From IMG/VR virus record IMGVR_UViG_3300008120_000147, positions 1 through 64,000 of that record: a stretch of DNA of 64,000 nucleotides; one strand, given 5' to 3'. The notes beneath the pieces are model-generated. The model saw only the letters and a list, made by a program, of their open reading frames with translations, made no database searches and was not told where the DNA came from. The DNA comes from an uncultured virus (IMG/VR IMGVR_UViG_3300008120_000147). Lineage: Duplodnaviria > Heunggongvirae > Uroviricota > Caudoviricetes. The position numbers and the translations under genes were made by a program. Below, in pieces: positions 3,266 through 59,014 of this stretch; the first letter of the stretch is position 1, and the number at the start of each line of letters is the position of its first letter.

Positions 3266-3802
3266 TTATTTCTTTTTTTCAAATAAATATTCTAATTTCT
3301 TATCTCTGATGTATGCTAATTTCAAAGATTCTGTAGTAGATGACGTATTGTTAATTTTATCATTTATCCAAACTTCACTTTTATACATTTCTTTATACTC
3401 AGTCCTTATGTGAAATTCATTTACATCATCATTTGATTTATAGTGAAATTCTTTAGCCACTATTATAATGGGTAAATTTAATTTTTCAATTTTTTCTAAA
3501 TATTTCCAAATTAATGATTTATTGATAGACCACATATCGATAACTATTATATCGACTCTAAAAAAATTAGACGAATTTGTTATTTTATCAACAAAGTCAT
3601 CAAAACTACTAATTATAAGCTTATTGTTTAAATAATGAAAAAGACACAAATCGTGAATTTTATTAGAAGATTGTGGTTTTGGTGGCGTTATTAATATATA
3701 ATTACTACCCGCTAAATCAAAAAAATTAACTATATCACTCACACCTCGAGCAACACAACTGATTTCACCAGTGAAATAATTATATTTTTTTAGGCTTACC
3801 AT
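3266..3802 (-). CDS. Hypothetical protein with C-terminal RDKKLEYLF motif
   Basis: 178-aa ORF; VDIIVID resembles a degenerate Walker B. Confidence 0.6.
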   Translation of the reverse strand: MVSLKKYNYFTGEISCVARGVSDIVNFFDLAGSNYILITPPKPQSSNKIHDLCLFHYLNNKLIISSFDDFVDKITNSSNFFRVDIIVIDMWSINKSLIWKYLEKIEKLNLPIIIVAKEFHYKSNDDVNEFHIRTEYKEMYKSEVWINDKINNTSSTTESLKLAYIRDKKLEYLFEKKK

Positions 3803-9331: not shown

Positions 9332-10090
9332 ATGGAAAAATACGCTTTCACCTATATCATAGGATATAGACACAGAGTAGATAGATTTATGAATCTAAAA
9401 AGAGTGTTAGACTGGATTAATGCATTTTCATCTGTTCAAGTAATATTAGTAGAACAAGATAAGTATTCTAAAATTTCACACTTGAATCTCAAAGCACAAC
9501 ACATCTTTTTAAAAACAGACAAACCATATAATAAATCTTGGTCTTTCAACGTGGCTCTTAAATACGTAAAATCAGATATAGTTGCATTTGCAGACTCAGA
9601 TCTTATCATGAACCCAGACGCTCTAATAGAATCACTAAAATTAATTAGTCAATATGAAATGGTGAATCCCTATAATTCTGTAATAGACTTGGACCCTCAA
9701 GAGACAGGACTACCTATAGACCAAATTGTTTCAATTAATAGACCTGGTAGAGGCGAGACGGATCATCAAAAAGTGCCTCTATGTGGGGGAATTTGCATCT
9801 TTAGAAAAGATGCAATAAACAAGATAGGCGGTTGGAATGAAAACTTCATAGGCTGGGGAGCAGAAGACGATTTTCAATCAATTAAAGTTACTAATTTTTT
9901 ATCGTGGACTGAACTACCACATAAATGTTATCATCTTTATCATGTAAGAGAAGCACCTAACATGCCGCTTTATCAAAGAAATATTCAACTATTGAATCAA
10001 TTAGCTACTCTCTCTAAAGAAGACTTAGTCAAAACCATAAATAAAGACATTCCAAAAAATGGCATGAAAAATAAATATGACAATTTTTAA
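9332..10090 (+). CDS. GT2/GT7-like glycosyltransferase
   Basis: YNKSWSFN, FADSD, GGWNENFIGWGAEDDF. Confidence 0.85.
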   Translation: MEKYAFTYIIGYRHRVDRFMNLKRVLDWINAFSSVQVILVEQDKYSKISHLNLKAQHIFLKTDKPYNKSWSFNVALKYVKSDIVAFADSDLIMNPDALIESLKLISQYEMVNPYNSVIDLDPQETGLPIDQIVSINRPGRGETDHQKVPLCGGICIFRKDAINKIGGWNENFIGWGAEDDFQSIKVTNFLSWTELPHKCYHLYHVREAPNMPLYQRNIQLLNQLATLSKEDLVKTINKDIPKNGMKNKYDNF

Positions 10091-10853
10091 AGACCAATTA
10101 AAATCTATCTGCAACTATTCAGATAAGCAGATGACTACACCAAAAGCTCAATTGATGTATGTTGATATGATATCATCAGATGATGAAGAATATAAAAGAC
10201 AGATCAAACAAAAAAATAGAGAATTAGTAGTTGATGCTATTTTAGATGATAAGATTGAAGAATTAAATACATTCAGAGAAAATAACATTGCATCACAAGT
10301 AGTTGATTTAAGCTCTCAATATAATCCGGCAGTTAGTAGTGCTGGACAACAAGTAATAAGTCCAAAAATTATGCAAATAAACTTAACTGCTAAAAAATTT
10401 GAGACTTATGAAAAATTATGGAATGAAGTAGTTGATTTTTTAAATCAAAATACACAAAATCCTAAATCTAAAGCAAATGGCCCATACACATCGTTAGATG
10501 TTACTCTAAATGGTGACTTTGAACAAGATTATAGAAGAGTAATTGCAAAATTGATGATGTCATCAAATATAATTGCAATGGATGGAAGAATTGGACCAGC
10601 AACATCACTAATTTATGGTAAAAAATCATTTCCTTATATAAATTATGCTAGAAATCAATTTGAATCAAATAATATAAATGGAATACAAACCTATTTCAGT
10701 GACTTAATTGATGATGATAAAATCATCGTATGTAGAGGAAGTAATATAGACCAACCAGGATTATTACTTATTGATAACTCTACAACAGGAAATTACTTTT
10801 TTGACAAAACACCAAACTGGCATAAACAATTTTGTTGGTTTAAAATTATTTAA
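10077..10853 (+). CDS. Truncated paralog of the major capsid protein
   Basis: Blocks colinear with MCP 40294-42018: PKAQLMYVD, ISPKI, SNIIAMDGRIGPA, DQPGLLLI, KQFCWFKI. Confidence 0.8.
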   Translation: MTIFKDQLKSICNYSDKQMTTPKAQLMYVDMISSDDEEYKRQIKQKNRELVVDAILDDKIEELNTFRENNIASQVVDLSSQYNPAVSSAGQQVISPKIMQINLTAKKFETYEKLWNEVVDFLNQNTQNPKSKANGPYTSLDVTLNGDFEQDYRRVIAKLMMSSNIIAMDGRIGPATSLIYGKKSFPYINYARNQFESNNINGIQTYFSDLIDDDKIIVCRGSNIDQPGLLLIDNSTTGNYFFDKTPNWHKQFCWFKII

Positions 10854-12022: not shown

Positions 12023-13282
12023 TTAGAAATTGAATTGATCAAATAACTCTGTTTTAAATATAGCCTCTACTAAATTTTTATTCTTTTTTGCCATAATCAA
12101 ACTGTCGTGTACGGTTATCAATTTTACCGAAGAATCCTCTATCATTATTTTTTTTACAATTTTATTAAAGATTAAATTAGATTCCATTTTTTGCAAATCA
12201 TAAGCTAAAATTTTATAATCACCCTTTTCCTTTTTATATAGAGTTATAAAATTGTGAATTGTCGGAAATACTGATTTAAATAACTTATCAGCTCTACTAT
12301 TTGCTGCATTCCTACCGAATAAAACCTTATAAGTTAGTTCTTTTACTTCTTTTTTATCTTTTATATTTAGTTTCTGCATTAAAAATTGATAATAATTACC
12401 AGAGATAGTCAATTCTTTAAAAATATCAAACTCTTCAGATTTAACCCAATTTGTTTTAGAATCTCTAATTAATTTTGTTAGAAAAAGTGGTTGTGAATTT
12501 GAAATATCTATTTCACAAGTTTCCTCACCATCTATAAGAAGACAATTTTTTCTAATGAAACTTCTCAGGATAGTAAAATTAGTATGCATTCTACCATAAG
12601 AATCAAAATGAAAAAATATATGTTTTTCATTTATTGAATCACAAGCATAAACATTTCTATTATAGATATCAAAGTCTTTTTCTTTTAATGAATCTAAAAA
12701 GAAAATCGATCTTGGTAAGTCGATCTGAACAGAAAATAAATCAGACACTAACTTCTCACGAACCGTATCTTCAATAAGTGTATAATTTGTTTTAGAATTA
12801 TTAATTAATTCTAAAACCTTTTTTTTATATTTTTTTAATAAAACTTTATCGTAGTTTTTTATTCTTTTTTTCTTAGATTTTATGACTTTTGGATTTAGTG
12901 AGTAAATTCTAGACGTCACGCCCTTTTTATAATTAGTAATTAGTTGAAGTATGTTTCTCTCTATCAGATAATCCATATAACTTTTATACAAATAGCCATA
13001 TTTATCTTTTAAAACTTCAGCATTTATGACAAATTTGTTTTCTTTTTTGAAATAGTATTTTAATAGTAAGTTATTGACTATATCAATAAGATAAGCTGGT
13101 TTAATTTTTTGATTTTTATATTCTATAGTTTTTAATTTAGAAATAGAATCCAGACACTCTGGAAGATAATGTAGGCAGTAATTTTTTTCTCTTAATCTTT
13201 TTAAAATATTATTTGAAATTTTTAAGTTACTTACTTTGACTATATTCATATCAATCTTATTAAGATTTTCTAATAGATTCAT
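12023..13282 (-). CDS. Minimal family-A polymerase-like protein
   Basis: GRMHT, motif A-like EIDISNSQP, motif B-like KELTYKVLFG, LQKMES, motif C-like TVHDSL. Confidence 0.65.
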   Translation of the reverse strand: MNLLENLNKIDMNIVKVSNLKISNNILKRLREKNYCLHYLPECLDSISKLKTIEYKNQKIKPAYLIDIVNNLLLKYYFKKENKFVINAEVLKDKYGYLYKSYMDYLIERNILQLITNYKKGVTSRIYSLNPKVIKSKKKRIKNYDKVLLKKYKKKVLELINNSKTNYTLIEDTVREKLVSDLFSVQIDLPRSIFFLDSLKEKDFDIYNRNVYACDSINEKHIFFHFDSYGRMHTNFTILRSFIRKNCLLIDGEETCEIDISNSQPLFLTKLIRDSKTNWVKSEEFDIFKELTISGNYYQFLMQKLNIKDKKEVKELTYKVLFGRNAANSRADKLFKSVFPTIHNFITLYKKEKGDYKILAYDLQKMESNLIFNKIVKKIMIEDSSVKLITVHDSLIMAKKNKNLVEAIFKTELFDQFNF

Positions 13283-13479
13283 TGTTTGAAAATTTTATTA
13301 ATTTTTTGTTTTCTTTTACTCTTAATCATCTCACTCATTAATTGACTGGCTAAATCGTCTATATTGATACCATGATAAGATTTTAAATCATGTGATAAAT
13401 CTCGTGACCAAGTCGCTCTTAGAACTCTTGTATCAGCTTTAACTTCAACAGAAGTCATACTAAGACCAATAGATTTCAT
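13279..13479 (-). CDS. Mini-protein containing a gp23-like capsid segment
   Basis: VEVKADTRVLRATWSRDLSHDLKSYHGINID resembles the conserved gp23 AKxRxLKAxxxxELAQDLxAxHGxD block. Confidence 0.7.
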   Translation of the reverse strand: MKSIGLSMTSVEVKADTRVLRATWSRDLSHDLKSYHGINIDDLASQLMSEMIKSKRKQKINKIFKQ

Positions 13480-14819
13480 TATTTTGTTGGTGTTTGTTCT
13501 TTACCAACTTCAGGAACTATAGGCATTTTACCACCTTTACCCTTTTTCTTCTTTTGCTCACCAGATTCTTTATCAAATTCATCATATACATCTGGATAAA
13601 CTTGACCCTCAGCATCAGTGTCATATTGTATATCGAAGAAGTCTCCAAAGTCAAGAAGACCAGCTCTACCTAGCTCTATTTCTTGCATTTTATTTAAATA
13701 TTTAGATATATAATCGTCAATATCTTGAACAAAACCATTAAAAAGTTTCACGGTATTATCAGTAAATATACCAATTGCTTTTTTCTTTTTCTTATTAAGA
13801 GAACCCAATAAAACTTTGAAAATATATTCAAGTTTTGGACTTTCTTCAATATACTCTTTAGTCAATTTATTATTTATCAACTCAACATTAATTTTAAACT
13901 TTTGTTTATCAAAAAATTCAGGAACAATGAAGTCAAAGTTTAGTAAATCTTCTTTTACCTCAGAAACATAGAGGTTAAATAATTTGCTTACTAAATAAAG
14001 GTAACACTCATCTTTCTTTTCGCCTTTTAATTTTATATCTTCTATATTTAGAGATTGACAAAAATTTAAGAAATTTACAAGTATAAGTGTATAAATCTCA
14101 ACAAAATCAGTATCATTTGTTTCACTTATTCGAGTATAAAGTGGATTCAATAATTCAAAAGAAAGGTCATCTTTTAAAGTTCTTATAATCAGCTTTTCTA
14201 TGTTATTCTGAAAGTCTTCACTATTCATTAAGAAAGAGTTTTCAATGTTAGGATTTAAAATCTTATAAAAGAAATAAGAAAATGATTTTTCACCAAAAAT
14301 ATAATCTAAATCTTCTTCAGACGTATTTAGAAAATATTTTATAGCTTCTTTCATTGTTTCAGTAAGTTTACCTTGAAAAACAATTGGAACCATATCAACA
14401 TTTATTAATCTAGCATATTCGTCTAGTTCATCAATATTAAAGCCATACTTTCCTGATTTATTTATAGCAGATAACACTAAATTATTTTTAGGAATTCTAT
14501 CATATTGTATATTGGCGGGTTGATTATCTGGAAAATATTCAAAACAAAACCACCATTTCTTATTAAGAAGTGATTTTACACGATTATCTAATTGATTAAA
14601 GTAATTTATTGCAGGATTATAATAATTCTGCATCGCTAAGTCAATTAAGTTTATTGGTTCGTTTGATATAGACTTAGGCTTTAGAATAAATTCAGTTCCA
14701 TTCCAATTTACCCATATTTTACTACCTTGTATATCTTCTATTACAATAATTTCATCACTTAATATACCATCAAGTAATTCTTTTTCATTTAAGCCGTTAA
14801 GCGTAACTAATTTTGCCAT
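13479..14819 (-). CDS. RNA-ligase (Rnl2)-like fold protein lacking the motif I lysine
   Basis: IEDIQGS at the EKxDG position, FCFEY, VPIVFQG; TAATATATA at 14849-14857. Confidence 0.5.
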   Translation of the reverse strand: MAKLVTLNGLNEKELLDGILSDEIIVIEDIQGSKIWVNWNGTEFILKPKSISNEPINLIDLAMQNYYNPAINYFNQLDNRVKSLLNKKWWFCFEYFPDNQPANIQYDRIPKNNLVLSAINKSGKYGFNIDELDEYARLINVDMVPIVFQGKLTETMKEAIKYFLNTSEEDLDYIFGEKSFSYFFYKILNPNIENSFLMNSEDFQNNIEKLIIRTLKDDLSFELLNPLYTRISETNDTDFVEIYTLILVNFLNFCQSLNIEDIKLKGEKKDECYLYLVSKLFNLYVSEVKEDLLNFDFIVPEFFDKQKFKINVELINNKLTKEYIEESPKLEYIFKVLLGSLNKKKKKAIGIFTDNTVKLFNGFVQDIDDYISKYLNKMQEIELGRAGLLDFGDFFDIQYDTDAEGQVYPDVYDEFDKESGEQKKKKGKGGKMPIVPEVGKEQTPTK

Positions 14820-14854: not shown

Positions 14855-15127
14855 TTAATTATTCAAAAACATTAATATCTCATCTAAATTCTCTTTATTG
14901 AATCCGTGTAATGGTTTTCCACCATTTTTGAGATAATCATTATATAATTCATTATATTGATCCTCTGTATAAAAGTTATCATCTATTTCGGAAAATATAA
15001 TATTTGTGTCGTGTGATGTAATGGTCTTATTTTGTAGACGTGTCTCACCATAAGCAGGACCAACCGGACCAACAAGTTCCGTTCCAGAGACTTCTTCTAA
15101 AATAAATTCTTTAAATTTCTTAATCAT
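14855..15127 (-). CDS. Small protein with CTS-like N-terminus
   Basis: MIKKFKEFILEE. Confidence 0.7.
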   Translation of the reverse strand: MIKKFKEFILEEVSGTELVGPVGPAYGETRLQNKTITSHDTNIIFSEIDDNFYTEDQYNELYNDYLKNGGKPLHGFNKENLDEILMFLNN

Positions 15128-15578
15128 TATTTGCCTCTATTTTTTCAAAAAATTCATCTTGTTGTTGAAGCGAATATTGATTCTTTTTCACATTATAAAT
15201 TATATTATATAAGAATCTGTCACTTAGAAAATGAGTATAATCTCCTTTTAATTTTATTATACATTCTTCTTTTTCAAAATCGTTCCCAACAGAAGTAATT
15301 TGTAATCCGATTTTACCATCTCTATCAATCAAATCACAGATAACAATCTTGCTTTTGGATAACAAATCATTCAAACGGCTATAAGTTGTATTTTTACTTA
15401 ATAACATGTAATCTTTAGTATCATCATCAGTGGTCTCATTATATAAATTTAGAAAACTTTTTTCTCTATCAGATAATTTTTTCTTTTTAGAAACTTTATC
15501 CAATATTCTATTCATCTCAATATCTTTAAGAGATTCACCCAAAATGTAGTACTTAAATAGTCTTTTCACATCAGTCAT
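15120..15578 (-). CDS. Hypothetical protein with DUF6576-like motif
   Basis: NRILDKVSKKKKLSDREKSFL; TAATATATA at 15601-15609. Confidence 0.6.
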   Translation of the reverse strand: MTDVKRLFKYYILGESLKDIEMNRILDKVSKKKKLSDREKSFLNLYNETTDDDTKDYMLLSKNTTYSRLNDLLSKSKIVICDLIDRDGKIGLQITSVGNDFEKEECIIKLKGDYTHFLSDRFLYNIIYNVKKNQYSLQQQDEFFEKIEANND

Positions 15579-15657: not shown

Positions 15658-18600
15658 ATGGATCAGAAGTTACTCAAAGCATTAGAAGATATTGGTTATG
15701 GTTTAGAGGCATTGGTTGAAGCTTTAGAAAGTAAAGAAGAAGCAAAATCAGACTCAGGTAAAGCCATACAATCCGGTGATTTTGGAAAACAACTTGAAAG
15801 TATCTCAAACCAATTGGTATCAATTAAAGCAGATACTGAAGAAATACTAAAACAACAAAAAACACTTTTAGGCATCTCTAAAGAGAAAGAGAAAGAGAAA
15901 GGAAAAGATACAAAAGAAATTGAAGGAGCGGGTGACGCTAAGAAGGAAAAAAGACTAAAAAGTGGAATAGGTACTATTTTATTAATAGCAGTAGCCGTAC
16001 TTGCTATTGGAATGGCTTTTAAACTTGTAGGTAACATAGATTTTCTTTCAGTCATTGCACTAGGTTTAGCGATTTATGTGGTCGCTCAAGCATTTGCAAA
16101 AGTTGCCGAATTGAAGCTTTCTTTAAAAGAAGCATTTATCACATCATTGACTATGGTATTAATGTCAGTAGCGATTACAGCATCTTCTTATATTTTACAA
16201 GGAATAGTTCCAATTAGCATTATTCAATTAATGACAGCAGTTGCAATTGCAGGTGTATTTGCAACAATTGGAATGTCTTTAGAAAAGTTAGGTATAGGTA
16301 TAACAATTTTCCACAAAATGCTTGGAAATAAAGTCACTTGGGTTGTGCCGTTGGTAATGGTTGCAATAGCAACGGCGATTACAGCATCATCTTGGATTAT
16401 GTCAGGTATTACTCCTATTGGAATTACACAAGCACTTACAGCAATTGCCATAGCAGGTGTTTTTGCGATAATTGGATTTTCTTTACAAAAAATAGCCGTA
16501 GGTATAGTAATAGCCCACGAAGTATTAGGAAAAAGCGCAACCTGGAAAATGCCATTAATATTGGTAGCGATAGCAACAGCAATTACAATGTCTTCTTGGA
16601 TAATGCAACTAATTGTACCAATTGGTTTTGCTCAAGTTTTAACAGCAATTGTTATTGCATTTGTATTCTGGATGATAGGTTATGCACTACCACATATAGC
16701 ATTTGCTGTATTCTTAGTAGATAAAGCTATGAATGCTAAAAAAGCAGCTTGGATAATGCCACTTATTTTAGTAGCCATAGCAACAGCAATTACAATGTCT
16801 TCTTGGATATTTTCGTTAGTAGTACCAATGGGTTGGAAAGAAGCATTAACAATCATCTTAATAACAATCGTATTTGCAGTTTTAGGATTTGTTTTACCGT
16901 GTATAGCACTTGGTGTTGTTATGGTTATAAAATTTTAGGAGCTAAAAAATTATTTGTATTACCTCTTGTATTTGTTTTTACAGCACTAGCCATAATGTTA
17001 TCATCTCACATTTTTGCAGAAATGGCTGATATTGAGATAGGTAAAATGTTCAAAATACTTCTGTATGGTGTAATCATGGCAATAGTTATAACTGCATTTT
17101 TACCAGCAGTAGTCATATCCGCAATAGCAGCAAAATTAGTTGGTATTGGAAACTTACTTGTAGGAGTTGTAGCTATAGTAGCGGTAGCCGCCGCAATAAT
17201 GGCCAGCTCATTAATATTAGAAATAGGTAGCTATGAATCATATCCTGGTTTAGGTTGGGTAATTGGTGTTGGATTAGCATTGACAGTATTCTCAGTAGCC
17301 GCGGCAGCACTTGGTCTATTAGTATTTGGCCCTCAGGCACTTATATTCTTGGCAGGACTTGCTGCTGTTTTAGGAGTGGCCGCAACAATTGTAGGTGTAT
17401 CTCACATATTGAAAGATGGTGAATATAACTTACCTGGATTTTTAAGTTGGGCTTTAGGAACTGCATTGTTATATGCAGCATTTACACCAATACTTATAAC
17501 ATTAGGCGCAGTTGGACTAGCATCAAGTGTTATAAGTTTCTTTGGACCAAATCCTTGGGAGATGGCAAAAGAAATGATGCTTCAAATTGCAGAAACTATT
17601 GTTGCGGTTTCTTATGTATTAGCCGAAGGTTCGTATAAAAAAGGACCAACTAAAGAGTGGGCAGAGGGAATAGCAATTGCCTTAGGAGCATTTGCACCTG
17701 TATATAAAATGCTAGTAGATAATGCATTTTGGTCTGTATTCGGAATGGGCGGTATAGGTCCAGATGAGTTTGCGGATGGTATATTGACAGTAACAGCTGG
17801 TATCGTAGTTGCCGCCAACGAATTTGCTAACAACGATGCCGTGTTTAAGAATGGACCACCAGTTGAGTGGGCCACTGGTGTTGGAAAAGCAATAAGTGCC
17901 TTCTCGCCAGTTTACGGTGTACTTTTAGGTCAAGGTAGAAGTTACTTTGATAAGATATTTGGTGGCCCTGGACCAACGGTTGAAGATATGAGAAAAGCCA
18001 TCATAACAATATCACAAGGTATTGTTGAAGCGGCTAAATTCTTTGCTGAAAATACATCACCATTTACTGAAGGAAATTATCCAAGTAAAAGATGGGGAGA
18101 AGGTGTAGGTGGAGCAATTTCAGCTTTTGCGCCAGTATTTACTGCAATTTCAGCTACTCCGTGGTATAGTAGTCCAGGAGAAACAATTGCAGCATTAGCT
18201 TCAGGTATATCCTCGGTATCCTCAGCAATAGTAGAAGCAGGTTGGATTTTCGCAGGAACAGAAGCCGAAATGTGGAAATCAGATAAAGTACCAAATAAAG
18301 CTTGGGGAGAAGGTGTTGCAGCATCAATAAAAGCTTTTGGTTATGTATTTGATTATATGTCACAAGAATCCGGTTGGTTTACAAGCGGTGAAGAGGTAAT
18401 AAGTGATATGTGCTATGCAGTGAGAAAAATATCAGAAACAATCGCTTATGCCGGGCAACAATTTACTTATGTAAGTGATTGGAAAAAATATCCAACTTCA
18501 ACTTGGGCAAACAATGTTAGTGATGTCTCAAAAACAATGACATATCTTTCAAAATTCTTAATAGACCAATATGGTGAAAGTGATTATGAAATTGCTTGGG

Positions 18601-19415
18601 GTCTCTATACTATGTCTTTGAAGATAAAAGAAACTGCTCAACATCTCTCAGGTTCAAATAGTTGGAAAGCACCAAAACCTATGTGGGCAAAAGATGCTGG
18701 TTTTGCTATAAGAGAAATGGCATATACAGACTATGAAATTTGGAGAGGTATAAAAGATACTTATCCTCTGGGTGATTCTGTATTAAGAATGGCAAAAAAC
18801 ATGTCAAAGGCAGCTAAGTATTTATTCTCAGCGTCAGACGCATTTGAATATAAAGTACCTGATGATTTTATACCATCACTTAGAAAAACAATGTTTGATT
18901 TTCAAGAACTTGTTTTTGAGATGGTTGAAAGAGAAGAGGATAACAAAAGTTTTGCTGATAAGTTCTTAGCAAGAATAGGTATAGGGGATGCTAAATCCAA
19001 AGATCCAATATTAGTAATGGCTAATAGATTAGTTAAACTAGCCAAAGGTTATGATGCACTAGCAAACTCTTTAACAAAACTTGGAGGAGCAATGAAGAGC
19101 TTAAATGTTAAAAGTTCTCAAGAACTCGGAAATCTAACAGCAGGTCTACTTAAAGGAAAAGCACCTAGTGCAGTTAGTGTGAATAATAACATGACTCAAA
19201 ATAGAGTTCAAATGGCTGAAATGAAAAGAGTTAAAAAAGAGGAACAAAAGAAAAAAGAAGATGAGGCAAAAAAACCAAGTGAATTACAGAAAGACATAAA
19301 ACAAATAATAAAACTTTTGAAAAACATTGATAAATCTGTAAGTTCAGTAGACGAATATATAGCAGAGGTAAGCGGAATACAATCTTCTGGTGCCGGAGGT
19401 GGCCTATTCAAATAA
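15658..19415 (+). CDS. Tape-measure-like protein, interrupted by a frameshift at about 16933-16938
   Basis: Hydrophobic Ala/Ile-rich repeats (PLILVAIATAITMSSWI; WxxGVxxAIxAFAPV) continue from ORF 15658-16938 into 16749-19415; TAATATATA at 15630-15638. Confidence 0.7.
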
Positions 19416-40293: not shown

Positions 40294-42018
40294 TTAGTTT
40301 AATAATCCATAAGAATCAGAAACTTTAATAGTCATAAACTGTTTTTGTGGGAACCAACCAACTTCAGCAACAGCATATCTAGATCTCAACAACATTCTTG
40401 GAGCAAAAGTAGCCTCAGAAATCAAAGAGATTGATTGTGCCATTAAATAAGGTACGAAAATGATACCTGGTTGATCAGGATTGTTCTTTCTACCAAGAAC
40501 GATTCTGTTATCATTATATCTCATATATGGATCAACGTAGATAGAAATATCACCGATTGAACCAACAGGATATAATTGACCTTGTCCGTTTAACTTAGAC
40601 TTAACTGGGTTAATAGTGTAACCAGAAATATCAGCTAAAGCAGCAGCAAGACCCCCGTTTGTGATAAGGTATTGAGCTGGACCTACACGACCTTCAGTTG
40701 CAATGTAGTTAGAAGCGTGAGCAATTTTAGTGATAAGTTTTCTTTGTACGGCGTGAGTAGTTTCACCACCAACTGTACTAGTTACATAAGTAGTATCTAA
40801 GTCAAAGATTGTTTGGCTAGCAATATTAGTTGAGAAAGTTAATCCAGCTAAAGGCGCGCTAGTTCTGTTAAGATCACCCATTTCAAAAATCTTAGCAACG
40901 ATTTGCTTAGAAATTGTTTGAGATAATTCATTAACAAGAATAGATTCCATTTTTTGAACGATATCCATACCTGTGTTAGCTTTGATATCTTCAATTTCAG
41001 TTCTTCTAAGAGCTGAAGATACTTCAATAGTACCAACTGCGATAGTTTTAGAAGAGATTTTTGGTCCGATAACTCCAGAATATCTTGAGTCATCTTGATC
41101 TCTATCCATTGGATATTGTCCAGAGAATTGAGAAGTTGAACCAGAGTTCCAGTTTGCAGAAAAACCAGGGATATGATCTTCTAACGCAGAAACCAATTCG
41201 ATTGCAGGCTCACCACCTAAAGCAGTACCACCTAAAGCAATGATTTGAGAAGCCATAGACGTTGTAGAATCAAATGTATTTCTTGTTGTATCAAAAGCCC
41301 AAGTTGTAGCTGCAGAACCAACCGCTGTATGAGACGTGTTGAATTGTCTGTAAGCTCTGAACATTGGATAACCATCAATTCTTGAGAATCCTAAAAATTC
41401 AACTTTATTTTCTTTATCAGATGGCTCTGAAGTAATTGCAGCACCTGTATCGATGTTATTCCAAATTCTACCATTTAAACCACCTGTAGTTTCGCTAATA
41501 ACTGGAGAAGAAGCTGCTAACTGAGCTCTAAGACCAGCGATAACTGCTGTTAATTTAGTAGAAGTCAATCCTGCTGTTTTAGGAGCAATTTTGAAAACTT
41601 GTGGTCTTTCATCTTCATTTCCTAAACGAGTATCATCGTATTGGAAGTCGATGTAAAGAAGGTCGATTTTCGGACCTGGAGATGGTTTAACAGCAACAAG
41701 GTCAAGACCGATTGTTTGAGCAGCAATTTTCATAGCTACAGGAAGTAAGTTTTGACCTACATCTCCTGAACCATTTGAACCACCAAAACCAGCCCAATTG
41801 TTACCAATTGTTGAACCAGCTAAAGTTGAAGGTTGTGGAGCAACAACACCACCCATACCAGCAACGTTAGAAGCATTCACATAAGCGTTCTCGTTGATTG
41901 AGTGGAACTCAGCATATTCTGACATCCAATCAATTCTCTCACCAGTAACACCCATGTTCTCAAGAACTGGAGACCATTTCTTGATAGCTTTAGATTTGTC
42001 TATTCTAATGTGTGACAT
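40294..42018 (-). CDS. Major capsid protein (T4 gp23-like)
   Basis: KKWSPVLE N-terminus, IYVDPY, FVPY, TFAPRMLLRSRYAV; directly downstream of the prohead protease. Confidence 0.9.
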   Translation of the reverse strand: MSHIRIDKSKAIKKWSPVLENMGVTGERIDWMSEYAEFHSINENAYVNASNVAGMGGVVAPQPSTLAGSTIGNNWAGFGGSNGSGDVGQNLLPVAMKIAAQTIGLDLVAVKPSPGPKIDLLYIDFQYDDTRLGNEDERPQVFKIAPKTAGLTSTKLTAVIAGLRAQLAASSPVISETTGGLNGRIWNNIDTGAAITSEPSDKENKVEFLGFSRIDGYPMFRAYRQFNTSHTAVGSAATTWAFDTTRNTFDSTTSMASQIIALGGTALGGEPAIELVSALEDHIPGFSANWNSGSTSQFSGQYPMDRDQDDSRYSGVIGPKISSKTIAVGTIEVSSALRRTEIEDIKANTGMDIVQKMESILVNELSQTISKQIVAKIFEMGDLNRTSAPLAGLTFSTNIASQTIFDLDTTYVTSTVGGETTHAVQRKLITKIAHASNYIATEGRVGPAQYLITNGGLAAALADISGYTINPVKSKLNGQGQLYPVGSIGDISIYVDPYMRYNDNRIVLGRKNNPDQPGIIFVPYLMAQSISLISEATFAPRMLLRSRYAVAEVGWFPQKQFMTIKVSDSYGLLN

Positions 42019-42102: not shown

Positions 42103-44193
42103 TTATAAATTTTTGAATCTTTCTAAGATTGCTTGAGCTTCATTGTCTGAGATTTTATCTTCTTGGATAAGTGCCTCATGTGAAACTAATTTCTTAGTAA
42201 CTGATTCATTCTTTTTGAGATTTCTAGTCAACCAGAAATGCTCAACTTGTGCTTCAGTTTTTAATACATCTTCTGGATAAAGTCTTGCTTGAGAAAGCAA
42301 TGATTTTTTAGAAGACTCATTTAACTGATTCCAGACTGGCTTAACGTTTTCAGGCATCAATCTGATAACTCTTTCTTCAAGAGTCTCGTTCTTAGTTGAT
42401 AATGCTTCTGCGATCAGACCTAACACATCTTTCTGTGTGAAATAACTTCTTTCGTTTATGTGAAGTTTTACAGTTTCCTGTTCTTCGTCTGATAATGCAT
42501 AAAAGCTATCTACTTGTGACTTGTTTAAGAACTTTAAGAAATTCAAGTCAGTAGTTTCAGAAACTTTACGTTTTTTAGCTTCTTCAATAAGTTTATTAAT
42601 AGATTCTGATAATTCAGTATCGTCTTTTCCTGTTACTTCGTAAGAAGATGGACCACATTCTTCCTCTTCTTCCTCTTTATTATGAACGTGAGTCGCTTCA
42701 GCAGCTGGAACACCATTCATGTTATATTCTGCTTCTTCATCATCTTCTTTATTCCAAGAATTTTCTTTTTCATCATCTTCAACCATTTCAAAACCAGCAG
42801 CGTTTAAAGAAGGAAATGCACCTTCTGATTCGAATAATTTACCACCATTTAATTTTTCAACGATTAATCCTTGATAAGAAATTGATTTATCTAAGCTTTC
42901 AGCGATGTATTCAGAGTAAGCAATATTATCATCTAAATGTTCAGCGATGTATTCAGAGTAAGCAATATTACCTTCAACATGCTCTGCTAAATACTCAGAA
43001 TAAGCAATAGAATTATCAACATGTTCAGCTATATACTCAGCATAAGCAATGTTTTTATCTAAGTTTTCAGCGATGTATTCAGAGTAAGCAATATTTTTGT
43101 CTAAGTTTTCAGCCAAATATTCAGAGTAAGCAATATTTTTGTCTAAGTTTTCAGCCAAATATTCAGAATAAGAAATGTTTTTGTCTAAGTTTTCAGCGAT
43201 ATATTCAGAATAAGAAATATTCTTATCAAGATTCTCAGCTAAATACTCTGAGTACTCAATATTTTTATCTAAATTTTCAGCAACATACTCTGTGTAATTA
43301 ATAGCCTTTTCTAAGTTTTCAGCTAAATAATCATTGTGTTTAACTAATTTTTCAGTCGTAGATTTAAGAGATTTGTTCTCATTTACAACAACTTGAATTT
43401 TCTCAGCTAAATAATCTAAGTATTTTACCACTTTAGAATTTGTCTCGTTTAACTCCTCATAATACTCAAGTAGTTGTTCTAATTTTTTAGGACTCATATT
43501 TCCTTTAGAAATTGCATTTTTGACTTCTTTCTTAGTAGAGGCAATCTCATTTACTAAGTATTGTGAATAATCAGTCAACTGTTTTTTTGTTACGAATTCG
43601 TTTTTGTTCATGTTGAATAATTCATTTATTTTAGACTCGTCGGACATTTCATATATCCTAAAGTTAGATTGTGGATTGTATCCTAAGGACTCATTCAAAA
43701 CTTTAACACTCATTTTTGCAGAAGCAAAACCTGGGTCAGCTACTATATCATATGTGAAAAGTTTTTTCAAAGAAACAGAACCATCAGATTCAGTGATACC
43801 AGCTGCTCTTGATGATACAAATACTGGACAACCATCATCAACCAAAGCCTTTGCCTCTTTACCCCAATAAGTTGATAAAAGTTTAATTTCACCAGATACT
43901 AAGTTTTGTTCTTTAATGTATTGCGCTTTAGTGATTGTGTGAGATGCTCTTGCCAAAGATGTATCAAAAACATCTGGGTGGTCAAATTCACCATAAACAG
44001 CACCTAAACTATTCATTCTTTCGTTTAATTCATCTAAGGCAGGAAGGAATTTATCTGCAGTATAGATTCTTTCGTTTCTATTCTTAACACCAAATTCCGT
44101 GAATGTACCTCCTAAGATATAATCCTTCTTACTAGAAGAATTTTCTCTAATAAGAGAATTAGTTGAGTTTTCTACTATTAAAACTGGTTTCAT
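42103..44193 (-). CDS. Prohead protease (gp21-like) fused to scaffold/core (gp22-like)
   Basis: KNRNERIY, GEFDHP, SH, VSSRAAG, TYDIVADPG; then coiled coil with YLDYLAE and 14-aa repeats. Confidence 0.9.
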   Translation of the reverse strand: MKPVLIVENSTNSLIRENSSSKKDYILGGTFTEFGVKNRNERIYTADKFLPALDELNERMNSLGAVYGEFDHPDVFDTSLARASHTITKAQYIKEQNLVSGEIKLLSTYWGKEAKALVDDGCPVFVSSRAAGITESDGSVSLKKLFTYDIVADPGFASAKMSVKVLNESLGYNPQSNFRIYEMSDESKINELFNMNKNEFVTKKQLTDYSQYLVNEIASTKKEVKNAISKGNMSPKKLEQLLEYYEELNETNSKVVKYLDYLAEKIQVVVNENKSLKSTTEKLVKHNDYLAENLEKAINYTEYVAENLDKNIEYSEYLAENLDKNISYSEYIAENLDKNISYSEYLAENLDKNIAYSEYLAENLDKNIAYSEYIAENLDKNIAYAEYIAEHVDNSIAYSEYLAEHVEGNIAYSEYIAEHLDDNIAYSEYIAESLDKSISYQGLIVEKLNGGKLFESEGAFPSLNAAGFEMVEDDEKENSWNKEDDEEAEYNMNGVPAAEATHVHNKEEEEEECGPSSYEVTGKDDTELSESINKLIEEAKKRKVSETTDLNFLKFLNKSQVDSFYALSDEEQETVKLHINERSYFTQKDVLGLIAEALSTKNETLEERVIRLMPENVKPVWNQLNESSKKSLLSQARLYPEDVLKTEAQVEHFWLTRNLKKNESVTKKLVSHEALIQEDKISDNEAQAILERFKNL
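42875..43336 (-). repeat. About 11 tandem 42-bp (14-aa) repeats, consensus YSEY(L/I)AENLDKNIA
   Basis: Visible in both DNA and protein. Confidence 0.9.
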
Positions 44194-44779: not shown

Positions 44780-46657
44780 ATGATAAATATAATAGAAGGT
44801 GACCGATATGAAGGTCAAATAGAGTTTTCGAATAACGGAAATGCAACAACAACAATAGGTGAAAAATTAATATTCATACATAGAAAAAACACAAAAAATT
44901 CTTTACACTTAGATAATGTACGAATAGAAATATTCAAAGGTGAAAAAAAACTTGAAGGAAAAGTTATAGAAGTTATTTCAAGATTCAGAACAGAATTTGT
45001 AGGCAGAGTTCAAATAGGAAAAAAATCAACATTTGTAATTCCAGATAGTGATAAATTATCAGTCGATTTTTATATAAAAGGAGGTTTAGTAGCAAAGGAT
45101 GGTCAAAAAGTAATTGTAGAACTTACAAAATGGGAAGATAGCAAATCACCACAGGGAAAAATAACAAAAATATTAGGAGATGCTGGTGATAACAACGCAG
45201 AGATGAATTCAATAATGTATGAATATAATCTACCAGTAGATTTTCCACAAGAAGTACTTAACGAGTCGGAATTAGTTCCAGAAGTTATATTTGATAAAGA
45301 AATATCTCTAAGAAGAGATATGAGAAACATAACTACATTAACAATTGATCCAGTAGATGCTAGAGACTTTGATGACGCTCTTTCAATTAATATAATAAAT
45401 GAAAATAATATTGAAGTTGGGGTTCATATTGCAGATGTAGGTCATTATGTAAAACCAGGAACTAAATTAGACGATGAGGCATTTAAGAGAGCAACTTCTG
45501 TCTATCTTGTAGATAGATGTGTACCAATGATTCCCGAAAGACTAAGTAATGGAATATGCTCATTAAAACCAAATGAGGACAGATTAGCATTTTCAGTTGT
45601 TTTTAATATTGACAAAGATGGAAAGATTATCAATGAGTGGCATGGAAAAACTGTCATTCACTCCGATAGAAGATTTACTTATGAAGAAGCTCAAGAAATA
45701 ATTGAAGGACAAGAAGGTGATTTCCAAAATGAAATAAGAGTTCTTAACGGACTAGCTCAAAAAATTAGAAAGAAAAGAATAAGTGATGGCTCCATTGAAA
45801 TGGGTGGAATTGAAGTCAGGTTTAAGTTAGCAGATGATAATAAAAAACCGATTGGTGTCTATTTCAAAGAACAAAAAGAAGCTAACAAACTTATTGAAGA
45901 ATTTATGCTACTTGCAAACAAGTCAGTAGCTAAGATACTTTCTAATAATCAATGGTTTAATGTCTATAGAATACACGATACACCAAATATGGAAAAACTT
46001 CAACAACTTGTAGGAGTTTGTCAAAATTTTGGACACGATGTTGCAATAGAAGGCGAGGGTGATGAGTTAAAAAAATCCATAAACAAATTACTAAAAGAAA
46101 TAAAAGGAACTCCTGAAGAAAACATGATTGAAACTTTAGTAACAAGATGTATGTCTAAAGCAAAATACACAATAAAAAACATTGGACACTACGGATTAGG
46201 TTTCACACATTACTCACACTTTACCTCACCAATTAGGAGATATCCAGACTTAATAACACATAGAATTCTTTTTGATTTTTTAAATAAAGGAAAACAAGGA
46301 AATCCTAATAAAATTGAAGAACAAGCCAGTTGGTGTTCAAGTAGAGAGCTAATTGCGGCAAAAGCTCAACGAGATTCAATTAAGTATAAACAAGCAGAAT
46401 TCTTACAAGATAAAATTGGTCAAGTTTTTGATGGAATAGTATCAGGAGTCACTGATTGGGGTATCTATGTAGAGCTTATAGATTCTAAATGCGAAGGAAT
46501 GATTCGATATAATAGTATTGGTAAAGTAAAAGTAGATTTAGACCACTATACCATCACTGATGAAATGGGAAATAAAATCAGACTAGGAGATCCTTTAAAA
46601 GTTATTGTTTCATCAGTTGATTTAGAAAAGAAACAAATTGATTTTAAATTATTCTGA
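44780..46657 (+). CDS. rnr: Ribonuclease R
   Basis: TIDPVDARDFDDALS, HIADV, RATSVY, IEEFMLLAN, HFTSPIRRYPDL, C-terminal S1. Confidence 0.95.
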   Translation: MINIIEGDRYEGQIEFSNNGNATTTIGEKLIFIHRKNTKNSLHLDNVRIEIFKGEKKLEGKVIEVISRFRTEFVGRVQIGKKSTFVIPDSDKLSVDFYIKGGLVAKDGQKVIVELTKWEDSKSPQGKITKILGDAGDNNAEMNSIMYEYNLPVDFPQEVLNESELVPEVIFDKEISLRRDMRNITTLTIDPVDARDFDDALSINIINENNIEVGVHIADVGHYVKPGTKLDDEAFKRATSVYLVDRCVPMIPERLSNGICSLKPNEDRLAFSVVFNIDKDGKIINEWHGKTVIHSDRRFTYEEAQEIIEGQEGDFQNEIRVLNGLAQKIRKKRISDGSIEMGGIEVRFKLADDNKKPIGVYFKEQKEANKLIEEFMLLANKSVAKILSNNQWFNVYRIHDTPNMEKLQQLVGVCQNFGHDVAIEGEGDELKKSINKLLKEIKGTPEENMIETLVTRCMSKAKYTIKNIGHYGLGFTHYSHFTSPIRRYPDLITHRILFDFLNKGKQGNPNKIEEQASWCSSRELIAAKAQRDSIKYKQAEFLQDKIGQVFDGIVSGVTDWGIYVELIDSKCEGMIRYNSIGKVKVDLDHYTITDEMGNKIRLGDPLKVIVSSVDLEKKQIDFKLF

Positions 46658-47094
46658 TGACAAAAGAGTTTAGTGTTGAGTTAGATAATAATAAAATAAC
46701 TGATTATGAACATTTATTATCGAGATTTTCAAATTGGAAAAAATACAAAAGAGAAATAAATCTCAACCAATTATTAGAGAAAGGAAAAAAAATTCAATTT
46801 GATATAGAAATCAAAAATAATCCAATGGTCTTTTATATCTCAGTAAGTGACCAAGAATATACATACACAACATCACTAACAAATGCATGTTCATCTTTGA
46901 AAAAATTAACTTTTATAATTTTAGAAAATGAAATTTTGAAACTAGAAGCTGAATTAATTTTATTAAACACACGATGGGGTAAAGTAATTAAAAACTTAGT
47001 AGAGTCCGGCTTAGAATTAAAACTTAATCAACATATAAATATAGAAGGACAAATAGATAACTTTTATTTTGAATTACCAAAACAAGCAGCATGA
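46657..47094 (+). CDS. Hypothetical protein with REINLNQLL motif
   Basis: 145-aa ORF coupled to rnr. Confidence 0.65.
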   Translation: MTKEFSVELDNNKITDYEHLLSRFSNWKKYKREINLNQLLEKGKKIQFDIEIKNNPMVFYISVSDQEYTYTTSLTNACSSLKKLTFIILENEILKLEAELILLNTRWGKVIKNLVESGLELKLNQHINIEGQIDNFYFELPKQAA

Positions 47095-47525
47095 GGTTTT
47101 ATAAGATAACAACCACTAAACACCAAAGAGAGATTGATGAAATAATTATGTCTATGTCATCAACAGAGGTAGATTATGTATCAACATTATACAACAAGAT
47201 ATCAATGGTTGAGTTTACCGATGAAAAAGAATACGAATGTATGTTTGCCATTCTAGACAAATATCTATTAAATAAGATATCTGAACTATATCTAAAATAC
47301 TCTATCGATCATAAAATATTTGATTTGACAAAGGATATTATTTTTGATAATAATTTAAAATTATCATATAAAAACTATAGAAATCAACCAGTTAAGAATG
47401 AAGTTCTAAAACTTATTAAATTGTTCAAAAAAGACTGGACTACAAAAGATGATGTTTTGGATAAAATACTAGAAAAAGGAATCAATTCATTATCAGATTT
47501 TGATTTAGAAATTCTGAACTCTTAG
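47091..47525 (+). CDS. Hypothetical protein with C-terminal DUF6576-like motif
   Basis: DDVLDKILEKGINSLSDFDLEIL. Confidence 0.65.
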   Translation: MRFYKITTTKHQREIDEIIMSMSSTEVDYVSTLYNKISMVEFTDEKEYECMFAILDKYLLNKISELYLKYSIDHKIFDLTKDIIFDNNLKLSYKNYRNQPVKNEVLKLIKLFKKDWTTKDDVLDKILEKGINSLSDFDLEILNS

Positions 47526-58296: not shown

Positions 58297-59014
58297 TTAA
58301 GCCGGTAGTTCTTCCTCACCCTCTTCCTCTTCTTGTGCTTGACCCTGTCCTTGTGCTTGACCCTGTCCTTGTGCTTGACCCTGTCCTTGTGCTTGACCCT
58401 GTCCTTGTGCTTGACCCTGTCCTTGTGCTTGAGGTTCTTCAAATTTGTCCTTGTGCTTGACCCTGTCCTTGTGCTTGAGGTTCTTCAAATTCACCTTCTT
58501 GAGCTTGAGCTTGACCTTGTGCTTGACCTTGTCCTTGTGCTTGACCTTGTGGCTGTGCTTGACCTTGTCCTTGTGCTTGACCTTGTCCTTGTGCTTGACC
58601 TTGTCCTTGTGCTTGACCTTGTGGTTGTGCTTGACTTTGTGGCTGTGCTTGACCTTGTGGCTGTGCTTGCATTTGAGCCTCACCTTCTACTTCAACTTGC
58701 GGTTGAGATTGAGATGATTGTCCCTGAGCTTGACCACCCATAAGAGCATTACCTGGAAGCTTTTCAACGTCCAAATTATTCATATTAATATATTTAACAA
58801 TTTCCTCGGCGATATCAACATCCCCAAAAAATTGGCGTAAATTCTTACCTGTTGTATCTTTTACTTTTTTAACATAAGCATTGATTAATGACTGAGGAAT
58901 GTCAATCATTGTCTTAACTTTATAGATATCGTTTACTTGTAAAACAGATTCTTTTATAATCTCTTCTCTGTTTTTTCTAATACGATAACTTTCAAATGTT
59001 CTAATGTGCTTCAT
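58297..59014 (-). CDS. CTS-bearing protein with (QAQGQG)n low-complexity tail, frameshifted by a 46-bp duplication
   Basis: MKHIRTFESYR; removing one copy of 58400-58445/58446-58491 gives a single 223-aa ORF; TAATATATA at 59039-59047. Confidence 0.7.
58332..58670. repeat. 18-bp tandem repeat (cttgtgcttgacc(c/t)tgtc) encoding QAQGQG/QAQPQG
   Basis: Directly visible. Confidence 0.9.

Follow-up and report, generated by a model that had tools for sequence, protein, structure and literature searches.

A conserved mini-gene joining a gp23-derived capsid segment to a shared C-terminal label in Mahaphage-like phages

The mini-gene, its locus and its conservation

The window analyzed here is a 64,000-nucleotide stretch of DNA from an uncultured tailed virus (positions 1 to 64,000 of IMG/VR record IMGVR_UViG_3300008120_000147). 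A mini-gene with an ATG start and a product of 66 aa lies at positions 13279-13479 (minus strand), and its translation agrees with that in an earlier note made from the sequence alone. Two parts can be told apart: a gp23-derived part (residues 2-54; 13318-13476, minus strand), delimited by Pfam, the alignment with T4 gp23, a structural model and dN/dS, and a C-terminal label (residues 56-64; 13288-13314, minus strand), recognized from the alignment, dN/dS and its genome-wide enrichment. Both neighbours are conserved and overlap the mini-gene. The stop of the upstream 446-aa gene (13479-14819, minus strand), our synteny anchor, shares one base with the mini-gene start (TAATG), and the start of the downstream 419-aa gene (12023-13282, minus strand) shares four bases with its stop (ATGA). 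The upstream gene matched no Pfam or PHROG family above cut-off and the downstream gene had no Pfam or PHROG match; some stretches of the latter presumably correspond to palm motifs of family-A polymerases.

The resident major capsid protein (574 aa; 40294-42018, minus strand), a member of the gp23 family, is encoded beside the head protease gene (42103-44193) at a distance of 27 kb, and the mini-gene is hence located outside the head gene cluster. Promoter and terminator scans of the window remained at chance level (promoters 36 vs 28.5 ± 4.6). Four public RNA runs were available, with a best share of 0.06, and two of them gave no informative cover of the mini-gene. Elsewhere in the window, two consecutive ORFs (15658-16938 and 16749-19415, both plus strand) correspond to a single 994-aa ORF with the same N-terminus (L163:10519-13503) in G001, one of five near-complete related genomes (G001 to G005); the split is possibly a frameshift or an assembly error in the window. 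Many window ORFs begin with a similar MKxLKxFxE-type N-terminus (14855, 27223, 29539, 32566, 37712, 57620, 58439 and others), which we take to resemble the capsid-targeting sequence of T4. A Gln-rich tandem repeat (58297-59014, minus strand) closes a 191-aa ORF, and repeat ORFs overlap there in other frames.

In the model of the peptide, helices span residues 26-34 and 40-63 and the N-terminal part is extended; at a pTM of 0.34, the peptide alone is predicted to have no fold of its own. It covers the strand, the short helix and the start of the long helix found at residues 252-299 of T4 gp23, a stretch which we take to be the P-domain strand and spine helix of the HK97 fold. Conserved residues include R18, W24 and D31, and within the label R56 is invariant and I60 almost invariant (alignment of 35 sequences). 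Family members measure 53-73 aa, and some have lost parts of the capsid segment.

With the upstream gene as anchor, an orthologue in this position was present at 52 of 80 related loci, a count that includes duplicates, a truncated copy and a locus with the same sequence as the window; five of the 80 loci end too early, four of them without a match. After removal of identical upstream proteins and of 11 loci (short, broken, or ending before the downstream gene), the mini-gene was present in 39 of 55 distinct lineages, with five gains or losses on the tree compared with 14 when the labels were shuffled. Over 11 non-overlapping pairs, dN/dS was 0.305 for the capsid part (p = 9e-19) and 0.08 for the label, the latter value being partly built in by the definition of the label stretch through its own pattern. 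Thirty genes gave 435 pairs, of which 301 were unsaturated, and dN/dS was below 1 in 300 of these. The mini-gene is a conserved gene under purifying selection and not a remnant.

The earlier note had named the lack of a gp23 match, or a random remnant not conserved or not expressed, as outcomes that would speak against its reading; a gp23 match was found (below), and orthologues at 52 of 80 loci and a dN/dS of 0.31 in the capsid part show conservation instead. A gene decaying after recombination of a capsid gene would nevertheless be in keeping with the median dN/dS over unsaturated pairs (0.46, vs 0.13 and 0.17 for the neighbours), with the L058 orthologue, which appears frameshifted, and with the public RNA runs, which gave no support for the gene. 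Decay is contradicted by the open frame, own start and both overlaps, which are kept across the 39 lineages, as well as by the 300 of 301 pairs below 1. A profile search of 1.84 billion representatives returned 1255 matches, and among the best 150 of these (50%-identity library) 106 were stand-alone proteins of at most 80 aa, 84 of them with the label at the end. Decay is refuted by the selection tests, and we consider it very improbable. Mean identity was 42% for the mini-gene, compared with 73% and 63% for the neighbours; such faster change would be of the kind to which conflict genes tend.

Relationship of the capsid part to foreign and resident gp23

Residues 2-54 of the peptide align with positions 132-184 of the Pfam Gp23 family (PF07068; E 1.2e-9, 38.5 bits with a cut-off of 24.4), in line with the gp23 resemblance proposed in the earlier note, and the peptide also matched the PHROG 138 major head protein (E 1.1e-7). 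Against T4 gp23 252-299, the E-value was 0.066 for the single sequence and 3.3e-6 for the family profile, and the peptide is homologous also to the matching stretch of the gp24 vertex protein. A tblastn search recovered 646 GenBank phage records at E ≤ 0.1; among the 30 matches listed, all were annotated as capsid or vertex proteins except one unannotated record and one hypothetical protein. The ESM Atlas gave only clusters auto-named Gp23 domain, and a single-sequence homologue search with the peptide only three proteins. Residues 2-54 are thus homologous to T4-type gp23 and gp24 (PF07068, PHROG 138; PDB 5vf3, 6uzc, 1yue) and pass the sequence cut-off of the family, whereas the complete HK97 fold and a location in the head cluster were not found. 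In contrast to gp23, the peptide covers 53 of 376 profile positions and has no axial domain; it could not form a shell, and the label is absent from gp23.

The resident capsid protein is a far poorer match. BLASTP with the peptide gave only E 4.9, and the family profile matched the resident segment weakly (HHalign probability 43.9, E 2.4e-4) compared with a foreign gp23 (probability 97.8, E 1.2e-12), so that two claims of the earlier note held: the peptide is nearer to canonical gp23 than to the phage's own capsid protein, and the corresponding resident segment is the more diverged. That segment (residues ~322-384) differs from canonical gp23 and is nearly invariant in six relatives. Of 140 family members, 134 scored higher against canonical gp23 segments (n = 23) than against resident segments (n = 6), and the window peptide scored 101 and 34, respectively; this contrast is inflated, since the canonical set was collected with the peptide as query. 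The other six scored at least as well against the resident type. Pfam, PDB and the 646 GenBank phage records agree on the likeness to foreign gp23, and the gp23 part of the mini-gene derives from gp23 and is nearer to the foreign than to the resident type.

A tree of 64 short segments had few columns and unsettled bootstrap values and did not resolve the peptides from canonical gp23, and we therefore claim no donor for the gp23 piece. Three of the 35 peptides in this tree lean toward the resident type, on long branches. In a separate lineage (L053, L054 and L081), the same locus encodes a peptide more like the capsid of resident type (L081 and L054: 41-43% over 30-34 residues). The tail KQKINKIF aligns without offset to KQIVAKIF, with which the resident long helix ends; the spacing varies in the family, and we treat this correspondence as unproven for that reason.

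The resident capsid protein is 75% identical to that of LR745206 (634,780 bases), which carries a 61-aa mini-gene orthologue at the same place, 74% to that of LR756502 (642,428 bases), 67% to that of G003 and 52-53% to those of records of 735,411 and 636,363 bases. The four largest genomes of Al-Shayeb et al. belong to the Mahaphage clade, for which that source gives predicted Bacteroidetes hosts (PMC7162821), and the relatives found here are probably these genomes.

Divergence of the phage's own capsid at the peptide's site favours a poison aimed at rival capsids. The piece would invade the folding or assembly of gp23 of a co-infecting T4-like phage, or take its scaffold or chaperone; the C-terminal label may bring a protease, and the own capsid may be spared by its divergence. 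The scores of the 134 members and of the window peptide fit such a role, and so does the best-matching class of full gp23, which has cultured relatives among Flavobacterium phages (41% identity), while the resident capsid groups with genomes that agree in size with those predicted in the source above (PMC7162821) to infect Bacteroidetes, which suggests that the phages may have hosts in common. Moreover, the residues with the best conservation in the peptides (R, W, E, D, D) belong to those that gp23 itself retains. Several positions that are more than 90% conserved in canonical gp23 are lost in the peptides, however, the canonical contrast is inflated as described, and the label occurs on many proteins with no link to the capsid. 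The six members nearer or equal to the resident type, together with N-terminal pieces and a 258-aa paralogue of own type (below), fit a pure poison of competitors poorly. We regard this explanation as doubtful, although it ranks second to the one preferred below. The capsid-interference factors CpmB, Psu and TcaP of satellites and prophages are small proteins that act on the capsid assembly of another phage; they are scaffold-like or decoration proteins of satellites and are not known to be pieces of capsid proteins. Their likeness to the mini-gene concerns only the poisoning of rivals, and by these descriptions they are set apart from it.

The C-terminal label and the set of labelled capsid pieces

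The KRKQKINKIF stretch was described in the earlier note simply as a tail that follows the capsid fragment. Its presence was confirmed, but it is not incidental: it is a label common to many unrelated proteins. Counted in the last 21 residues, the pattern R-x-x-K-I/L-x-x-I/L-L/F ends 4-17% of the genes in the five near-complete relatives. It was found in 101 of 611 genes in G001 (3 in the control stretch), 59 of 602 in G002 (2), 48 of 445 in G004 (6), 52 of 841 in G003 (2) and 7 of 182 in the 200 kb examined of G005 (3). The 76-kb record of the window itself has 4 of 81 (2 in the control); the enrichment holds in the relatives and not in this record. Of 2762 genes, 271 carry the label in frame, vs 20 and 17 in the other frames; its codon use equals the background, and we therefore read it as a feature of the protein. 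An origin as by-product of the A-rich start of the next gene was ruled out by the same in-frame excess and ordinary codon use; the variable distance to the next start and copies inserted inside proteins also speak against it. In a scan of 117 labelled proteins, most had no match to a known family.

Within the window, a conserved 178-aa protein (3266-3802, minus strand) ends in the same label, and a 145-aa protein (46657-47094, plus strand) combines an internal label-like stretch with a weak likeness to the phage head protease (own-protease profile, domain E 0.004). Label and DUF6576 are contiguous in one protein (L185:5982-6194), which gives a lead that the label may be the first helix of DUF6576. 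This domain has 3-7 matches per genome in the relatives and was found only in Bacteroides among 14 control genomes; the term did not occur in the literature searched. A DUF6576-like short motif is also present in phage proteins of the window at 47091-47525 (plus strand) and 15120-15578 (minus strand).

The label is constrained more strongly than the capsid part (0.08 vs 0.31). This would be expected if the label did the work, as a sorting signal, degron or competitor of a single host or phage protein, and the gp23 part were captured filler serving as a soluble helical carrier. The value for the label is partly built in, as noted, but members that have lost parts of the capsid segment and the dozens of unrelated labelled proteins per genome point the same way. 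On the other hand, the capsid part is itself under purifying selection (p 9e-19), gp23-specific residues are kept across members that are only 42% alike, and in other groups of phages the gp23 segment persists between different flanking sequences, without this label. We consider it unlikely that the label alone matters. The same gp23 segment occurs as small genes in those other phages (L102:2748-3363, P0066, P0072, P0081, P0111, P0116, P0117, P0150), often joined to the N-terminal piece of gp23 in swapped order and flanked by a different short FKF-type motif, and these genes are possibly an independent invention.

The mini-gene belongs to a labelled set of capsid pieces in Mahaphage-like phages. 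PF07068 matches, with the real capsid gene included, numbered seven each in G001 and G002, six in G004, three in G005 and one in G003. The pieces cover profile positions 6-51, 126-185, 155-197, 184-305, 197-260 and 300-376, some of these matches falling below the cut-off, and they are orthologous between the genomes of the relatives. Among ORFs of 30-150 aa, a profile of foreign gp23 matched 12 of the 260 with the label and none of the 1309 without it, so that every small ORF matched carries the label. G003 (597 kb, 98% complete), with the label on its 52 genes, contains no gp23 piece.

N-terminal pieces resemble the phage's own capsid protein, and so does a 258-aa capsid paralogue in the window (10077-10853, plus strand; BLASTP 4e-8) with an internal copy of the label (R48, ~10218-10244). 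Its model (pLDDT 79.9) shows a partial HK97-type fold, with T4 head proteins as Foldseek matches (E 8.7e-8, TM 0.53), but without the long-helix block and the C-terminal hairpin. This paralogue had been pointed out in the earlier note as lacking roughly the region found in the peptide; it is real, and by alignment most of the peptide's block is missing from it. At 59 loci with intact flanks, both genes were found in 40, neither in 9, the peptide alone in 7 and the paralogue alone in 3, as counted at the locus and not elsewhere in those genomes. A second capsid-derived paralogue of ~250 aa with the label at its end was observed at L194:4179-4931 and L166:9912-10661 (both plus strand).

These observations allow for an accessory of the phage's own head assembly, or for a part of a split capsid-like protein; the peptide and the other pieces (N-terminal piece, C-terminal hairpin, 258-aa paralogue) would join, or would tune the timing or size of the phage's own head. 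The missing block of the paralogue and the association of the two genes would agree with this, as would other phages in which the same segment is fused, in swapped order, to a gp23 N-terminal piece (P0066, P0081, P0117, L102:2959-3363) and is followed by a gene for the C-terminal piece, and G005, where two gp23 pieces are neighbours. Yet 10 of the 59 loci have only one of the two genes, so that complementation of the paralogue is not obligatory and the strict co-occurrence expected of split capsid or vertex halves is absent; the loci are also related, and the association is for that reason not an independent one. The pieces, furthermore, overlap each other along gp23, and the peptide is nearer to a foreign capsid, has disappeared from several lineages and is missing in G003, where the capsid protein has 67% identity. 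A complex prediction for three gp23 pieces of one relative (the C-terminal piece, residues 45-146 of the N-terminal piece and the peptide orthologue) scored 0.00, which speaks neither for nor against. A role in the phage's own heads is in our opinion unlikely, yet ranks above action of the label alone.

Labelled pieces of core proteins other than the capsid protein are a weaker case. Nine labelled mini-ORFs and 0 of 1167 unlabelled ones have motifs of terminase, family-B polymerase, ssDNA-binding protein, sheath or portal, the motifs having been written after seeing the matches. No labelled small ORF was matched by profiles of terminase, portal, sheath, helicase and polymerase from the phages themselves, and two were matched by that of their head protease. 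Pairwise phmmer searches of small ORFs against long proteins gave matches for 10 of 120 labelled, 0 of 120 reversed and 11 of 400 unlabelled ORFs (sampled from 888, with many genes cut at locus edges); given the unlabelled matches, only the gp23 subset is informative. Among single cases, a 66-aa ORF of G001 (L171:6192-6392, plus strand) has a sheath-like N-terminal motif, the label and a terminase-like motif, and the long sheath and terminase proteins that these phages encode contain both motifs as well. Labelled mini-ORFs at L172:1969-2157 and L199:11693-11827 (both plus strand) and in L273 have a motif like the terminase Walker A, with one relative at 70% identity and a PHROG terminase match of only E 0.022. 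Labelled ORFs at L169:7466-7636, L197:9152-9340 and L219:6494-6682 (all plus strand), from three genomes, have what we take to be a motif like motif B of family-B polymerases, and those at L184:14186-14335 (minus strand) and L199:11433-11696 (plus strand) presumably a stretch from gp32-type ssDNA-binding proteins.

A possible capsid-epitope mimic with a docking handle

The earlier note read the gene as a captured foreign capsid fragment used as a decoy or to poison the capsid assembly of co-infecting T4-like phages. A foreign-type gp23 piece kept as a working gene is supported by Pfam, HHalign, the 52 of 80 loci and dN/dS. As a whole that reading covers too little: the gene has companions in a labelled set of gp23 pieces, selection acts more strongly on the label than on the capsid part, and own-type members exist. 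The peptide is homologous to gp23 but does not qualify as a capsid protein. Judged from the sequence, it appears to have the anatomy both of a mimic and of an adaptor.

We tentatively prefer, as a possibility short of probable, that the product of the mini-gene mimics a capsid epitope, carries a docking handle and is directed at host sensors of the capsid. The front 54 residues reproduce the strand-helix-helix stretch that is conserved best in T4-type capsid proteins, and would serve as bait for host proteins that recognize capsid motifs, such as sensors of the Lit or CapRel kind. The last ten residues would form a helical handle, common to many accessory proteins of these phages, through which the bait, together with what it has caught, would be brought to a single common partner, and the sensor may thereby be titrated or removed during infection. 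The pieces that together cover gp23 could act as a decoy panel against several sensors. A front with no fold alone must, we infer, bind something that recognizes the gp23 sequence.

The resemblance to a molecule sensed by defence is given by homology to gp23, capsid proteins being sensed by CapRel, Lit and Avs7, Avs8 and Avs10. Within gp23, the Gol peptide lies nearer to the N-terminus. In the model given for CapRel, with HDX support cited, the contacts are to the P-domain sheet and spine helix of a capsid protein with HK97 fold, and the short gp23 peptide Gol activates Lit (PMC9712102); Lit and CapRel detect the capsid via short motifs, Avs7, Avs8 and Avs10 wrap the whole fold, and Avs families sense most core phage proteins (PMC13581612). 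If our assignment of the fold is right, the peptide would copy the region modelled for CapRel and, like the motifs of CapRel and Lit, it is a short capsid stretch; those motifs are parts of a full capsid protein that trigger defence (PMC9712102), whereas here the piece is a gene of its own. Several points speak against a decoy. The segment of the phage's own capsid is of another type and nearly invariant, and the need for a foreign-type decoy is not obvious, which is a weak point. The whole-fold grip of Avs7, Avs8 and Avs10 cannot be copied by a foldless piece of 54 residues. A capsid peptide can also trigger a sensor instead of blocking it, as described for Gol (PMC9712102). Finally, G003 has the label and no gp23 piece, and most labelled proteins match nothing known.

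Mimics of this kind have counterparts in DSAD1 (PMC11087589) and the DNA mimic Ocr, likewise small phage proteins that occupy the trigger site of a sensor. DSAD1 competes with the tail tube for DSR2 (PMC11087589). Unlike the mini-gene product, each acts alone on one system and carries no shared label, and the passages considered here do not present DSAD1 as a cut-out of the trigger (PMC11087589). If the function were plain competition for a sensor, the novelty would shrink to a variant of such mimic anti-defence proteins. For the gene design itself, capsid cut-outs combined with a proteome-wide label, no earlier description was found: neither gp23 pieces nor the label were described in the literature searched, which consisted mainly of openly accessible main texts and included two jumbo-phage papers (PMC7824862, PMC12607003). 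Pieces of gp23 chosen by selection would amount to a map of candidate immune epitopes or of weak points in assembly, and one label on up to one gene in six, in some of the largest phages known, would point to an unrecognized sorting or docking machinery.

In a broader form of the mimic-and-handle explanation, dozens of small proteins of these huge Bacteroidota phages would share one docking helix, with cut-outs of phage proteins as baits, and deliver their catch to one effector, e.g. a ClpC that has no N-domain, together with ClpP. The baits would certainly include the capsid and possibly terminase, polymerase, ssDNA-binding protein and sheath, and the targets might be host immune sensors or proteins of rival phages that bind these motifs. 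This extended form is unlikely, ranking between the poisoning of rival capsids and a role in the phage's own heads. If true, it would be a phage-encoded platform for targeted removal and a read-out of the linear phage motifs sensed by bacteria. An explanation other than all those considered is improbable, less so than decay.

Variable fronts combined with a constant docking helix are typical of SspB, MecA, F-box and SOCS-box proteins. The same adaptor anatomy, a variable bait and a constant short peptide, is present here, with a protein-level label on 4-17% of genes, and a ClpC-type ATPase is conserved in the relatives, four of the five of which encode ClpP. This ATPase together with ClpP is a candidate reader of the label. 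Clp adaptors, however, usually dock on the N-domain, whereas the phage ATPase (L177:4643-6775, L202:15339-17453 and L258:11557-13656, all plus strand) has none, the Clp N-domain PF02861 being found in 0 of the 5 genomes, and no sequence link to known adaptors was found. DnaK, DnaJ, GrpE and a rhomboid protein are also phage-encoded. Three labelled small proteins match the coiled-coil middle region of the phage ClpC-type ATPase.
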